IMG/VR virus record: IMGVR_UViG_2061766007_003026
From: an uncultured virus (IMG/VR IMGVR_UViG_2061766007_003026)
Taxonomy: Duplodnaviria > Heunggongvirae > Uroviricota > Caudoviricetes
Reading direction: 5' to 3' (one strand)
Length of the DNA stretch: 45,753 nt
The first letter of the stretch is position 1; each line of letters starts with the position of its first letter. The notes below the pieces were generated by a model, which saw only the letters and a program-made list of their open reading frames with translations, made no database searches and had not been told where the DNA came from. A program made the translations under genes and the position numbers. Shown piece after piece: positions 1,851 to 28,519 of the stretch.

Positions 1851-2216
1851 ATAAAACCCCGAGTACGTATATAAAACATTACAATATGGGACAAGTGCTC
1901 GGGGCCACCGTTCCCAATTGCTGCACCTGAGCTATATAGCATGTTCCCTGGCAGTGCCTACGTCAAAGGGTCCATGCCTCTCGCAGTCCGTCCGGGAATC
2001 ACCATCGCAACATGGCTATTCCGGTCACCCGCCAACCGTTTTCTCCAAGACATATGACTTCCTTGACTTAGGAAACCAGTCCATCATGAAGAATTGCTTT
2101 TTCGATGACCTTCCGCATTCACCAGGCAGTCACCTACTTGTCCAACAGGTCAGTCACTCCCGTTCCCAGGTCGACTGTGATTCGCTACATCTTGCGGCAT
2201 GTAGCTAACCGCGATA

Positions 2217-12907: not shown

Positions 12908-12967
12908 TGTCACGGGGTGGAATCGAACCACCATCTCACCCCTGCTGCAGTCAGAGATGCGCTACCA
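12908..12967 (-). tRNA. Partial tRNA-like gene with 7-bp anticodon stem and loop ACTGCAG (allele of 13895..13971)
   Basis: ATCTCTG-ACTGCAG-CAGGGGT; same T-stem and acceptor strand as 13895; trailer CTA. Confidence 0.6.
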
Positions 12968-14892: not shown

Positions 14893-15235
14893 TAAATTCT
14901 AGGTACCTCCCGGAGACAACCGGGAGGAACCACGGCGTTGCCTCCAGTGCAGGACTGGCGCATACCGCCAAGCACGTCCGCCTCCCGGTGTCCACATGGA
15001 ATCACCGGTGGCGTCAAGGGTTTGCCCGGTTGTCCCCGGCCGGGCGCCGGGAGCCTCCCGGTTGGCCCNNNNNNNNNNTACCCCGAAAGGAAGGGAATGA
15101 AAGACGCCGTCCTTTTATGACGTTTGGACGATTGGCTTGCGCCAAGAAGCTTGTCGGGCTCCATTCCGCGTAATTTAGTGGAGGTGAGGGGAGTCGAACC
15201 CCTGTCCTAAACGCCATTCCGTTTCNNNNNNNNNN

Positions 15236-15548: not shown

Positions 15549-16022
15549 GAAAAAGAAAGTGGCGCGACTTTTTATGACGTTTGGCCCATTGTACAGTCCG
15601 CTAGCAGTGGAGTACAAGGAAATTGTCGGTTTCCATCTCGCCTTGTATAAGACGCTGTCCTTTTATGACGTTTGGACGATTGGCTTGCGCCAAGAAGCGT
15701 GTCTGGCTCCATTCCGCGTAATGTTGTCGGGGATACCGTTACTACGTGGGTTTCAACGCCACACGGCGTCCCCTGTGTCCCCGCACGGAGTAGTAGTCCG
15801 ATGGAGGAGCAGTAATGTTGTCCCCTGCCTTCGCGGACACCGGAACCACTCGAAACCGTATGTCCGTTCTACCCGTGCTGAAAGGGCGGTCCTACCGGCA
15901 GCAGGACTTGAAAATTAGTGCATGCCCGCGGTCCACCTTCATCCGCCAGTATTTAGTCACCCCGGACGTGACAATGGGCTCAGGAGCATCGGGAATGACC
16001 CGTACTCACATGCATGCAATAG

Positions 16023-16381
16023 TGGAGGTGAGGGGAGTCGAACCCCTGTCCTAAACGCCATTCCGTTTCAACCGTATCACAATCCATCGTTTTGGGCCCT
16101 GACCTGTTGCCCGGGGAGATGTATCCTTGAGGGGTCCTGGTCCAGTGTAAGATAGCCGGTCTACGACCAGTAACTCACGGCTAAATTCGGGACTTATCTA
16201 CTTGGTCCCGGGCTTTATTCATCCCACTTGGCCCGGGCAACGGCGTGCTACCGATTAAGCAGCAACGGCGTAGGCGAATGCATTGTCAGCATTTATCTTT
16301 TCGGTCCGTTTTTACGAAGCCACAGACCAACTTCGTGTGAGGTCTCCACAGTCCGATGCCCAGTCGAAACCAAGCACCCCC
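16023..16381 (-). ncRNA. ssrA: tmRNA, complete (tag ADNAFAYAVAA); 3' fragment of another allele at 15179-15225
   Basis: GGGGGTG/CACCTCC acceptor with G3:U70 and A73, T-loop TTCGACT, internal tag ORF; trailer CTA. Confidence 0.95.
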
Positions 16382-17480: not shown

Positions 17481-17570
17481 AATCTACGGCCGGAATCGAA
17501 CCGGCGTCTCCCGGCCTGGTTAGCCGGGCGCTCTGACGAGGCCTCGTCCACCTTGCTAAGCTACGTGGCC
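17481..17570 (-). pseudogene. tRNA-like element with a hairpin inserted in the D-loop, enlarged anticodon loop and broken acceptor
   Basis: TAGCTTAG...AGAGC, GACGAGGCCTCGTC insert, T-arm GCCGG-TTCGATT-CCGGC. Confidence 0.5.
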
Positions 17571-17694: not shown

Positions 17695-17770
17695 CAGGAC
17701 AGAACCGGACTCGAACCGGTGTCCCGGGTTGTTTCCGCCCGAGCTCTACCTCCTGAGCTTACCCACCCAG
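17695..17770 (-). pseudogene. Degenerate tRNA-like element
   Basis: AGCTCAGGAGGTAGAGC and ACCGG-TTCGAGT-CCGGT intact; G:U-rich acceptor, 9-nt anticodon loop. Confidence 0.45.
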
Positions 17771-17793: not shown

Positions 17794-17898
17794 TTGCCAA
17801 ACCAGGACTCGAACCTGGACGCCCTTTCGCGCGAGGACCGGGGACTTGCATTCCCCTGCGTCTAACGGCATCGTCGATGCACTTTCCGCCATTTGGCA
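17794..17898 (-). tRNA. Leu-type tRNA body with GCA (Cys) anticodon and a D-loop hairpin insertion
   Basis: Perfect acceptor TGCCAAA/TTTGGCA, A73, long variable arm, GGGGA-AT-GCA-AG-TCCCC; trailer CTA. Confidence 0.7.
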
Positions 17899-21196: not shown

Positions 21197-21209
21197 ATAA
21201 AAATTTTAG

Positions 21210-21254
21210 TTGCCGGTGATGGATTCGAACCACCGAATAAAGGCTTCAGAGGCC
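21210..21254 (-). tRNA. tRNA-Gln(CTG), 3' part
   Basis: GGC-CT-CTG-AA-GCC, T-arm; trailer CTA. Confidence 0.75.
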
Positions 21255-21300
21255 NNNNNNNNNNGACCAATTGATATAGATGAGAATACGAACAAACTAA

Positions 21301-21372
21301 TGGATACATACCGGGGTCGAACCGGTATCCCCCGGATGCGGACCGAGAATTCTACCATTGAACTAATGACCC
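21301..21372 (-). tRNA. tRNA-Ala(CGC) with bulged acceptor stem
   Basis: G3:U70, A73; GGGTCAT/ATG(T)ATCC; loop TC-CGC-AT. Confidence 0.75.
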
Positions 21373-21379
21373 AAAATAG

Positions 21380-21562
21380 TGGACCGCACCGGCATCGAAC
21401 CGGCCTCGCATGAACCCCAGTCCCGTAATGTCCGTATCCCGTCATGCCGGAACACTGTCGCCGGCAACGGCGACGGTTGGTTCCTAGGAATACGGATAGA
21501 TTACTATCTGTCCAGGCAGTGCCCATCGGGTAGTTGCTACCTACCCTTGCTTCTAGCAGCCC
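21380..21562 (-). ncRNA. 183-nt RNA with an alanyl-tRNA-like acceptor/T-arm domain and a large structured insert
   Basis: GGGCTGC/GCGGTCC with G3:U70 and A73, T-arm GCCGG-TTCGATG-CCGGT; trailer CTA. Confidence 0.75.
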
Positions 21563-21571
21563 ATAATATAC

Positions 21572-21645
21572 TGGACACATATCGGGGTCGAACCGATGAC
21601 CTCCTGAGTGCAAATCAGGCGCTCTACCAACTGAGCTAATGGCCC
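21572..21645 (-). tRNA. tRNA-Ala(TGC) with bulged acceptor stem
   Basis: G3:U70; GGGCCAT/ATG(T)GTCC; loop TT-TGC-AC. Confidence 0.85.
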
Positions 21646-21705
21646 ATAAAACATATCGCATCCGAACTGTCAATCTGCTGCAAGGCTGCTCGAACCTTGC
21701 GTTAA

Positions 21706-21778
21706 TGGAAGCGAAGGAAATCGAATCCTTCTCAACGATGCTGCCAGCATCATTCGCCACCTTGGAACATGCGCCCCC
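21706..21778 (-). tRNA. tRNA-Ala(GGC), atypical D-arm
   Basis: GGGGGCG/CGCTTCC with G3:U70; loop CT-GGC-AG. Confidence 0.75.
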
Positions 21779-21792
21779 GAATGGTTAAACGG

Positions 21793-21826
21793 AAAGGGCG
21801 GTTGCTTGCTGATGCAACCGCCCTTT
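21793..21826. terminator. Intrinsic terminator-like hairpin
   Basis: AAAGGGCGGTTGC...GCAACCGCCCTTTT. Confidence 0.6.
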
Positions 21827-21847
21827 TCGTCTNNNNNNNNNNTTTTA

Positions 21848-21919
21848 AGCGTCTATCCGGGCTCGAACCGGAGACAATGGAATGGAAATCCATTATGTTA
21901 CCAACTACACCATAGACGC
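21848..21919 (-). tRNA. tRNA-Gly(TCC)
   Basis: GCGTCTA/TAGACGC, loop TT-TCC-AT. Confidence 0.88.
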
Positions 21920-26194: not shown

Positions 26195-28519
26195 TCACTT
26201 GAGCAGGTCCAGGAACTGCTGCAGGGTTTCCGGGGTGTACACCGTAATCTCCTGGCCGGCCTTCCTGAGCTCGTCAATCTTCTGTACCTTGGACGGACCG
26301 GCGTTGTCTCCCATGAGCACCACGTTGCACTTCTTGGTAATGGAAGAACAGATGGTACCGCCGTTGGCAACGACCATGTCCTTGAAAACGTCTCGGTCGA
26401 GCTTCTCGAACGTGCCGGTCATGATGCACACCTTCCCGGCGAGCTTCGCAGACTGCACTTCCTTCACGTTCTGGGCGACACCCCATGTAGCGAACTCGGT
26501 AAGGGCACCCTCATACTTGGTGACGAACTCGCAGAACTTCCCGGAGATTACCGGGGAGATACCCGCCTTCTGGGCACGGTAGCAGAAGTCGTCGATGAAC
26601 CCGGTAGGGTCGCCATCCTGATAGATACGGATGAAGCCGCCGGCATCATGGACACACTTGGCCACGGCAGGTGCTACCTGGTGACCTAGGCCAGGAATGG
26701 ATAAGCCTTCGATAAGCTGATGGAGGTAGTTTCCCTTCGACTTGTCGATGCTCTGCAGGAGTTTCTTCGCACCGGCTTCAGTCTTGCCGCATGCGTCCAT
26801 GATGTCCTGTATGGTCAACGTGTAGAAGTCCGTAAAGAAGCGGAGCTTGCCTGCCTCCAGCAGCTGTTCCACTATCGACTCGCCGATACCCATGATGTTC
26901 ATGCATTCACGGGATACGAAGTTGGCGAGCTTGCCGCCAATCTGTGTACGGCATTCCTCGTTGGAGCATACCCAGGCGACCAGTTCCTTGCCTTCATTGT
27001 TCACCTGGCACTTCAGTTCCCCGCCGCAGCACGGGCAGGTAACCGGACGGAGGTAGCGTTCATATGCCTTCTCCGTATCATTCGCGGGAACCCACGGCTT
27101 GACNNNNNNNNNNGCATGCGCGGGTCCAGGAAGAAATATTCCTGTTGAACGCAATCTCGGTATAGATGCGGCGGATTTCGTTCACNNNNNNNNNNATGCG
27201 GAATCTTGTCCTTGTCGCACTTGGTACGCTCGACTTCGTAGGTATCCTTGGAGCGACTGGTCTCGGAACACTTCACGAGTTCCGGGATGATTTCGCCGGC
27301 CTTACGGATNNNNNNNNNNGTGTGGAATCTTGGCCTTGTCGCACGCGGCACGCTCGACTTCGTAGGTATCCTTGGAGCGGCATGTCTCGGAACACTTCAC
27401 GAGTTCCGGGATGATTTCGCCGGCCTTACGGATTACTACATGGCAACCCTTGTGCAGGCCGAGATAGTCGACGAGGTCCCAGTTGTGCAGGGAGCAACGC
27501 GATACCGTCGTCATTGCCAGATGCACCGGCTTGATGATGGCGACAGGAGTGATTGCGCCGGACATGCCGATGGACTGCTCGATGTCAAGCAGCTCGGTCT
27601 CCTTTTCCTCCGGCGGGAACTTGTATGCACGGTAGAAGTTCGGGGACTTCGCGGTGTATCCGAAGCGCTTCTGGTCTTCCTTGTCGTCCACCTTCAGCAC
27701 GACGCCGTCAATTGTATAGGGCTGCTCGAAACGCTTCTCGCGCATCTTCTCGGCCAGCGCCACGACGTCGTCTACGTTGTCTGCAACCCAGTGTTCAGGC
27801 ACCTCGAAACCCATCGCCTGCAGGTCAACGATGTCCGCATCCTGGAAACGGTTGGGACTCCCCTTGACGATGAGGTATGCGACGAACGACAGTCCGCGCG
27901 ATTCCACCTCGTCGGGGTCGTGCGACTTCAACGTGCCCGATGCGCCGTTCCTGGGGTTGGCAAACGCCTTCTTTCCTTCGGCAATCAGCTGGTCGTTGAT
28001 TGGTTCAAAGTCCGCGTATTTCCATACGGTCTCGCCGCGGATTTCCACTTCGTCGAGCCACGGAATCCTGGTAAGCACGCCCTTCACCCGGAGCGCATTC
28101 TCGAACACGGAGTCGCCAACGTTGTCCTTGCCACGGGTAATCGCGTCAACCAGCTGGCCATCACGGAACTTCAGGGCAAGGCTCAGGCCATCCAGCTTGT
28201 ATTCGCCTTCCAGACGCTTGACTCCGTTGTTGAACATCATGGTGGCCCATTCACGGGTCTCCTCGATACCGTTGGAGTTGGCGATTGAAATCATCGGGAT
28301 TTCGTGCTTCACCTTGCGGAATCCGTCAGCCCCGTCCTCCACATGGCGCGTTGGCGAGGTATCCAGGATTACACTGGGGTTTGCCGCCTCGAATTCCTTT
28401 AGGAGGATGTAATTCTTGTCGTATACGTCGTCCGGTACGGACGGCGTGCCAGCGGCGTATTCCCTTGCCCATTGGGTGAGAACGTCGCACATCTCTGCAT
28501 ACTGCTTGAAGTCTATCAT
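26195..28519 (-). CDS. ligA: NAD+-dependent DNA ligase (fragmented by gaps and allelic overlaps at 27104-27319)
   Basis: EYKLDG adenylation motif, EIRGE, ANPRNGASG, IDGVVLK, AYKFP, IRKAGEIIPE, C4 zinc finger, HhH, C-terminal BRCT. Confidence 0.95.

Follow-up and report, generated by a model that had tools for sequence, protein, structure and literature searches.

Anticodon-less RNAs that resemble transfer RNA (tRNA) are annotated in phages T4 and T5. In T4, rnaC (species 1 RNA, 139 nucleotides, nt) and rnaD (119 nt) are located directly after tRNA-Arg, and in T5, RNA1 and RNA2 are listed as 'tRNA-like stable RNA with unknown functions'. According to the passages cited (PMC3014915, PMC9697503), what the T4 RNAs do has yet to be explained. 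Another described type is the tag-less transfer-messenger RNA (tmRNA), consisting of the tRNA-like domain (TLD) only, which cited passages report for mycobacteriophage DS6A (PMC4131195, PMC11915505); according to the same passages, which refer to Mao et al. 2009, a molecule similar to the DS6A RNA strongly inhibits tmRNA in E. coli, 'perhaps acting by titrating SmpB'. Here we analyze a 183-nt tRNA-like gene in IMGVR_UViG_2061766007_003026, a record that is part of a large uncultivated phage genome (a giant phage from the rumen); the whole stretch studied, 45,753 nt, is referred to as the window. Judged from its sequence and those of its relatives, the gene is real and belongs to a small family that has not been described before; it is a mimic of the top half of tRNA, derived from tRNA-Ala and with no predicted decoding function.

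The gene lies on the minus strand at positions 21380..21562, RNA position 1 being 21562 and A73 being 21380. Its 5' acceptor strand GGGCUGC (RNA 1-7; 21556..21562) forms seven of seven pairs with 21381-21387, including G3.U70, and the 3' strand GCGGUCC together with the discriminator A73 occupies 21380..21387. The T arm, GCCGG-UUCGAUG-CCGGU (21388..21404), has five of five stem pairs and a loop, UUCGAUG, of the UUCRANN type. The frame of the gene, by which we mean the 7-bp acceptor stem and the 5-bp T stem with G3.U70 and A73, is complete in the window copy (12 of 12 pairs). Two alanine tRNA genes on the same strand, both called by ARAGORN and Rfam, adjoin it: tRNA-Ala(UGC) (21573..21645) ends 10 nt upstream and tRNA-Ala(CGC) (21302..21372) starts 7 nt downstream. 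The leader is UAU, with U at position -1, and the trailer is CUA (21377..21379); the same trailer follows the copies in two of the relatives described below, L026 and L012. Among the 37 tRNA genes of the window, T is at position -1 in 23 and CTA is at or next to the 3' end in 22. Because the flanks of the 183-nt gene match those of true tRNAs, we infer that it matures like its neighbors. The acceptor, G3:U70, A73, T arm, CTA trailer and flanking tRNA-Ala genes on which the original prediction was built are thus all present, and every complementary word pair that it named exists in the sequence.

Relatives were sought by means of an 821-amino-acid protein encoded just upstream of the tRNA array, which led to G002/L011, G003/L012 (47% identity) and 21 metagenome loci; homologues of the gene were then located by a script seeking T arms outside called tRNAs and by direct reading of the loci. 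Copies of 183 nt (G001), 160 nt (L026), 119 nt (L012) and 118 nt (L024) were found, every one inside an Ala tRNA cluster, and the family comparison accordingly includes five sequences of three types. G001 is the nearest record (549 of 567 positions of the region, or 97%, are identical). The L026 copy sits between the Ala(ggc) and Ile tRNAs, and the L012 copy, which is the same as that of L023, sits after Ala(cgc). With a covariance model built for the family (R1), the known copies obtain 93-162 bits: the window copy reaches 159.5 bits (E 3.9e-37), and the L012/G003 copy, which is the minimal form, 98.1 bits. Insertions in both the linker and the arm make the window copy 64 nt longer than this minimal form. 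Searches with R1 yielded one copy each in G001 and G003 and none in G002 (78% complete), the remaining loci or T4. The gene is present in five of the seven related genomes with a readable Ala cluster (the window, G001, L026, L012 and L024) and absent from L011/G002 and L021. The genes downstream of it vary (Ala, Ile and Asn tRNAs), with no conserved protein neighbor.

In the phages collection only the flanking tRNA-Ala was matched, and none of the 302 matching records covered at least 80% of the query; exact and degenerate patterns in viral_contigs returned G001 or G003 only, and protein-anchored scans of viral_contigs and genome_contigs gave no further members. One pattern match in genome_contigs, in a Gaiellaceae metagenome-assembled genome, lacks a T arm and nearby tRNAs and was judged to be due to chance (about 0.5 such matches expected by our estimate). 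The stretch itself is present at least partly in 20 of the 24 listed public runs; these belong to 15 studies whose labels are bovine, sheep, goat or unspecified gut metagenome, and two of the runs may be those from which the window itself derives.

Comparison of the five sequences shows a conserved frame around a drifting interior. All 12 frame pairs are intact in four of the five members; G3.U70 and A73 do not vary across the family, and the identity set G3.U70, A73 and G2-C71 is invariant in the four intact members. The family has G-C or U.G at pair 6:67, G.U or U.G at 49:65, and C-G, G.U or U-A at 51:63. A homologue search and covariation had been named as checks of the original prediction: the former yielded this family, and within it three of the 12 frame pairs are changed on both sides. 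In the frame alignment 98.3% of the cells are paired, as compared to 86.0% in shuffles (one of 500 reached the observed value) and to 37-60% with slid partners, and the covariation score is 0.367 versus 0.121 in shuffles (again, one of 500). The frame has been kept across lineages whose 821-amino-acid neighbor protein is only 47-49% identical to that of the window. The window and G001 copies differ at eight of 183 positions, none of them among the 24 paired frame positions, while the flanking tRNAs differ at 0 of 73 and one of 71. In mononucleotide-shuffled windows (50 shuffles), the full motif, a T arm closed by 7 bp over 96-320 nt, is met 0.18 times per window, and chance 7-bp closures are common once a real T arm is given, many spurious ones having been seen. 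The reality of the gene is therefore settled by the conservation of the frame in four other sequences and not by the rarity of the motif.

The interior, which follows the linker UAGAAGC (21549..21555; U8, A9 and G10 as in the adjoining tRNA-Ala genes, the whole linker being identical in L026), begins in the window with an insertion at 21526..21548 that holds the hairpin GGGUAG-GUAGCAA-CUACCC, whose loop reads AGC (the stretch spans 23 nt, the hairpin insertion itself being counted as 22 nt). The original prediction saw this hairpin in place of the D and anticodon arms; it exists and forms, but it is limited to the window and G001 and is missing from L026, L012 and L024. The start of the L026 copy, GGGCUGC-UAGAAGC-U-UGGGCACUGC, equals that of the window minus the 22-nt insertion. 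In G001 the hairpin-loop positions GU are changed to CC, and a variant in an RNA library has three extra letters within the same stretch. The next segment, the conserved box UGGGCACUGC (21516..21525), retains UGGG in L026 and L012 and is a candidate analogue of the D loop or, alternatively, the 5' strand of an AUGGGC/GUUCAU helix. The anticodon arm and variable loop are replaced by a long arm of about 110 nt (21405..21515), which folds; among the members, its length lies between about 66 and about 110 nt. The arm of the window is homologous to that of L026 (z 5.9, 0 of 500 shuffles), while the similarity between the window and L012 (z 1.8, 29 of 500) and between L026 and L012 (z -1.2) is at or near chance. 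No common interior structure was found by constrained folds. Only short boxes persist, namely UGGG in the linker and GCAAG(0-3 nt)GUCGAGAC in L012, L024 and L026, with GUCG...CGAC expanded to a hairpin in the window. Thus the complementary words of the 'long branched domain' proposed originally are present, but the domain is conserved neither in sequence nor in its individual helices. Since the frame pairs persist while the interiors barely align, the constraint rests on the frame; selection on the frame and not on the arm, in turn, suggests that the frame is the working part.

Standard tools do not recognize the gene. ARAGORN in the default and intron modes makes no call on it in the window, although 37 tRNA genes and one tmRNA are found there, in agreement with Rfam. 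Rfam gives nothing on the window copy at the gathering score, nor at E<=10 over 21200-21850, nor on the L026 and L024 copies at permissive E-values; no tmRNA-family match was obtained at E<=10, the TLD-only permuted model included. Weak Rfam matches to YrlA (E 0.5) and tmRNA_permuted (E 2) fall outside the element and were rejected. A conserved anticodon arm with a 5-bp stem and a 7-nt loop was not found, the sole candidate being the lineage-specific AGC hairpin, and the window copy does not form a 4-bp D stem. Three frames of each of the five sequences contain no conserved open reading frame and no peptide ending in Ala-Ala. In its first 10 nt the gene matches tRNA-Ala genes at up to nine of 10 positions and the phage tmRNA at three of 10. 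That tmRNA is a separate gene (16022-16381, tag ADNAFAYAVAA, by ARAGORN). The RNA is therefore neither a decoding tRNA nor a tmRNA, there being no anticodon arm, tag frame, tmRNA boxes or model matches; the lack of a resume motif and of an Ala-ending tag, the size of half a tmRNA or less and the presence of a separate tmRNA, all noted in the original prediction, hold, and the proposed screen by ARAGORN and Rfam for a tmRNA or an intron-containing tRNA called nothing. An attP site or a remnant of integration is also unlikely, as both acceptor strands are present, the gene is in register in the array and no integrase is encoded nearby.

How does this RNA compare to the described systems? Like T4 RNAC and T5 RNA1 and RNA2, it is encoded in a phage tRNA cluster beside tRNAs and homing-endonuclease genes, and like T4 rnaC and T5 RNA2, it has a canonical T arm and, after it, a strand that pairs with the 5' end and so encloses long extra arms in place of an anticodon arm (seven of seven closing pairs in RNA2, five of seven in rnaC). 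There is no sequence homology to T4, where R1 gives only a match of the size of a T arm (E 0.83), and the earlier RNAs lack the alanine identity: T5 RNA2 has U.G at 3:70 and G73, and T4 rnaC has U73 and two U.U mismatches. With the DS6A RNA, as described in the passages cited above, it shares phage encoding, an alanine-type acceptor and the lack of an anticodon and of a tag frame; compared with that description, it differs in its length of 118-183 nt, the long arm, the lack of tmRNA boxes and the tRNA-Ala-like 5' end. The similarity of this 5' end to tRNA-Ala (9/10) rather than to the phage tmRNA (3/10) speaks against descent from a tmRNA of the DS6A type.

With tmRNA in general (RF00023) the element has in common the G3.U70 acceptor, the T arm, a single-stranded linker with GG where a D stem would be, and a long helix 0-2 nt before the T arm, the order in the Rfam tmRNA consensus being 10 nt, helix 2, 1 nt and T arm; unlike tmRNA, it has no pseudoknots, resume codon, tag reading frame or stop, and is of half the size or less. 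The likely ancestor is tRNA-Ala, with which it shares first ten nucleotides close to GGGCUGUUAG, the T arm, G3.U70, A73, the leader and the trailer, and from which it differs in lacking a conserved anticodon arm and, in the window copy, a 4-bp D stem, and in being invisible to tRNA models. The literature search, which was by listings apart from the cited passages, found no description of an alanine-type, tRNA-derived, long-armed family of phage RNAs. The novelty in the original claim of a new aminoacylatable RNA is therefore to be limited to the family, as the general type has precedents in the anticodon-less RNAs of T4 and T5 and, according to the passages cited, in the tag-less tmRNA-like gene of DS6A.

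The minimum-free-energy fold of the window copy has -77.3 kcal/mol (z -2.89), and none of 200 shuffles folds as well. Three of the five helices named in the original prediction form in it, GGGUAG/CUACCC and two arm hairpins on the minus strand, GAUAG/CUAUC (21495-21508) and GUCGCCG-UUGC-CGGCGAC (21457-21474); the other two, AUGGGC/GUUCAU and UCCGUAUUCC/GGGAUACGGA, are displaced by competing helices. Alternative closing helices, CGUAU/AUGCG and UCCUAG/CUGGGG, also fold within the arm. When the frame is enforced, every member folds into the acceptor, a linker of 14-19 nt bearing UGGG, a long irregular rod, 0-2 nt and the T arm, with extra hairpins in the linker of the window copy. A D-arm-like alternative around UGGG is possible in L026 and L012: in L026, AAGC/GCUU can form around a UUGGGCACU loop, while the window has only three of the four such pairs and the 22-nt insertion in the loop, and L012 has alternative folds. 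Either fold keeps the top half of tRNA without the decoding half. Because the conserved UGGG-containing linker plausibly acts as a D loop, the elbow is probably kept.

Evidence on transcription comes from an RNA library, in which a contig (X17, record 1; 235 nt, depth 6) matches 21331-21562 along its entire length, without a joint, and stops at nucleotide 1 of the gene. This single low-depth contig is weak evidence that the element is transcribed without splicing. No joint inside the element was seen in four public runs compared over 21290-21830; neither X18 nor X20, both of them RNA runs, covered the element, and X18 spanned 21350-21384 only.

No gene for SmpB, AlaRS, a FemAB-type transferase, an aminoacyl-phosphatidylglycerol synthase (LPG_synthase_C) or RqcH (NFACT_N) was detected in G001-G003, in a search whose positive controls worked. 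In view of the lack of a phage-encoded partner, any partner must be a host protein. Further, G003 (91% complete) has the element and no detectable tmRNA, which means that the element is independent of the phage tmRNA.

G3.U70 and A73 suffice for recognition by AlaRS. We favor, with a probability of roughly 0.4, a reading in which the RNA goes through maturation in the manner of a tRNA, probably receives alanine as a tRNA would, and works by way of its conserved frame, as a mimic or competitor. A duplicated tRNA-Ala gene would have turned into a non-decoding mimic of the top half and would be co-transcribed with the tRNA array; the identical flanks suggest that RNase P would cut the 5' end and that the 3' end would be trimmed and supplied with CCA as in the neighbors. 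The product would fold into a minihelix of the acceptor and T arm, with an elbow made by the T loop and the UGGG linker, and would probably be charged with alanine by the host AlaRS through G3.U70 and A73. The insertion-tolerant arm would leave the body 0-2 nt before the T arm, a layout like that of the tRNA-like domain and helix 2 of tmRNA. Such an RNA would most likely occupy, or compete for, a host factor recognizing the top half of tRNA-Ala or tmRNA. The leading candidate for this target is the host SmpB, in analogy to the tag-less tmRNA of DS6A, the alternatives being AlaRS, EF-Tu or a host enzyme directed at the acceptor end. A more specific version, which we consider quite unlikely, is that a tRNA-Ala gene convergently became a tmRNA-like domain, the RNA being alanylated, binding host SmpB (and EF-Tu), and blocking or redirecting trans-translation in the host. 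It might, for instance, add one alanine but no degradation tag, or hold SmpB away from ribosomes that have stalled on phage messages. If true, RNAs for trans-translation would have originated a second time, independently.

Several observations weigh against the mimic or competitor. The L021 genome lacks the element even though its 821-amino-acid neighbor protein is 91% identical to that of the window, and, given its absence from two of seven genomes, the family is dispensable. The L024 copy has lost one G at the junction of the T stem and the acceptor and carries two helix-breaking changes, which may reflect either decay or an assembly error. The L026 and L012 copies fold no better than shuffles (z -0.65, 48 of 200, and z -1.12, 25 of 200, respectively), and the interior helices are not shared among the members, not even between the window and L026. 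The covariation, observed in five related sequences of three types and measured against shuffles that ignore kinship, is supportive rather than conclusive. The X17 sequence is a contig and cannot prove the RNA ends, and its library may contain DNA. As to the target, the tmRNA boxes of the RF00023 consensus, UUCGAC after the acceptor and GGAC before the T stem, are absent, and binding of SmpB by an RNA without them would be suggested by analogy only; in addition, the phages of the window and G001 carry a full tmRNA, against which a blocker of trans-translation would work.

Two of the other explanations are the main rivals of this reading. The RNA could be a module for which the tRNA frame serves only excision and stability through tRNA-maturation enzymes, with the arm as an effector that binds a protein or pairs with a target, or with the whole element punctuating the precursor. 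The short boxes kept across types and the homology of the window and L026 arms fit this possibility, which we nevertheless regard as unlikely: the arm varies greatly in length and has no conserved helices, the window holds no excess of sites complementary to the conserved box (four antisense matches versus 2.8 expected, and none for a longer box), the adjoining tRNAs bear processing signals of their own, and a mere scaffold would need no invariant G3.U70 and A73. Similarly doubtful is a decaying tRNA-Ala gene, disrupted by insertions in the anticodon region and having no function of its own. This would explain the patchy presence, the L024 lesions, the fast evolution of the arm and its tolerance of insertions, and the higher divergence between the window and G001 in the element than in the flanking tRNAs; a possible decayed partial paralogue at 1901-1989 of the window could also be counted in its favor. 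A pseudogene, however, should lose the frame as fast as the interior, whereas the acceptor, T arm, G3.U70 and A73 persist, with pair changes on both sides, in three types that are deeply diverged and have interiors that hardly align, and the window and G001 do not differ at any paired frame position.

Three further explanations accept a functional RNA. An alanine-charged, tag-less rescue RNA, escorted by SmpB into stalled ribosomes and donating alanine without a tag message, would agree with the alanine identity and with the top-half layout, G003 has the element without a detectable tmRNA, and tmRNAs apparently lacking a coding sequence are mentioned for some plastids in the passages cited (PMC11915505). 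Still, this is very unlikely, given the tRNA-Ala ancestry, the lack of tmRNA boxes and of matches to tmRNA models including the TLD-only permuted one, and the absence of SmpB genes from G001-G003; moreover, without a resume codon and a stop the ribosome would not be released. An intron-containing tRNA-Ala, spliced to a normal tRNA with, for example, the anticodon AGC, is already largely refuted. The first hairpin loop of the window does have seven nucleotides (G-U-AGC-A-A, with U33 and A37), the adjoining genes for GGC, UGC and CGC would make AGC complete the set, and the relaxed armless mode of ARAGORN calls 'Ala(agc)' here; yet L026, L012 and L024 lack the hairpin, G001 has C at position 33, no internal deletion yields a cloverleaf with D and anticodon arms, no Rfam intron family matches the element, and neither the intron mode of ARAGORN nor the four runs gave any sign of splicing. 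Finally, a dedicated donor of alanine for non-ribosomal transfer (cell-wall cross-bridges, lipid alanylation or peptide modification) would combine alanine identity with an inability to decode, and Fem-type transferases and aminoacyl-phosphatidylglycerol synthases read mainly the acceptor arm. This, too, is highly improbable, since G001-G003 have no gene of the FemAB, LPG_synthase_C, AlaRS or NFACT_N families and no protein neighbor of the element is conserved.

The paralogue candidate mentioned above (1901-1989, minus strand) contains GGACUGCGAGAGGC...UAGGCACUGCCAGG, which resembles the first 14 nt and the UGGG box of the element; it has no T arm and no G3.U70, and R1 gives it 14 bits (E 0.3 over all sources). 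The proteins encoded around the element are mostly without a family. The Ala cluster lies between homing-endonuclease-like genes (DUF559, HNH). Nearby on the minus strand, two separate open reading frames (26195-27154 and 27302-28519) encode an NAD-dependent DNA ligase, as a 405-amino-acid catalytic part and a 319-amino-acid protein with a BRCT domain.

A further member of the Ala cluster, tRNA-Ala(GGC) (21706..21778, minus strand), has G3.U70, A73 and a weak D stem of mostly G.U pairs, and is missed by default ARAGORN and Rfam, being called by relaxed ARAGORN only. Eleven of the 18 tRNA-Ala genes examined, including those at 21302-21372 and 21573-21645 (minus strand) of the window and genes of L011, L021 and L026, have a 3' acceptor strand of 8 nt. 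To have seven pairs together with G3.U70 and A73, they need a one-nucleotide bulge, either between 4:69 and 5:68 or one step towards the T stem; in the standard reading they have five or six pairs and C73, while the L012 and L024 lineages are canonical. This conserved irregularity might affect recognition by host enzymes. In the spacer after tRNA-Ala(GGC) (about 21650-21700 of the window, minus strand, and 12815-12870 of L011) there is a conserved hairpin with a T-loop-like UUCGAGCA loop and a stem of GCAAGG/CCUUGC in the window and GCAGCG/CGUUGC in L011, one pair being altered on both sides.

Other tRNA-like features are scattered over the minus strand of the window. A second orphan tRNA-like gene of 105 nt (17794-17898) is kept in L010, L019 and L021 and is not called by default tools; its body is expanded and its T arm canonical, and it has a 7-bp closing stem UGCCAAA/UUUGGCA, A73 and a CUA trailer. 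Two orphan T arms, both conserved in relatives, coincide with relaxed ARAGORN calls of genes resembling tRNA-SeC(tca) (17481-17570) and tRNA-Phe(aaa) (17696-17768); the UCA anticodon of the former could serve stop-codon suppression. Orphan T arms with A73-CUA ends were also seen at 21200-21290, in a tRNA-like unit that a stretch of masked N interrupts, and at 12908-12932 (GGUGG-UUCGAUU-CCACC-CCGUGAC-A-CUA). The last ~50 nt of the tmRNA, comprising its T arm and 3' acceptor strand, occur again as an exact copy at 15179-15230, about 790 nt downstream of the real tmRNA end, which is consistent with a remnant of an element inserted into the 3' end of the tmRNA gene. In G001, ARAGORN also gives an overlapping 'permuted tmRNA' call.

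The tRNA-like RNAs of T4 and T5 have been known for decades without a function, and the family described here adds a handle, namely an invariant alanine identity set on a selected frame. Genes of this kind escape standard annotation: in the window at least one true tRNA-Ala gene and two other tRNA-like genes are missed, which implies that counts of tRNA genes in large phages are too low. Provided that the frame is the active part, the use of such mimics of the top half of tRNA against host translation, or against tRNA-directed systems, may be routine among phages.

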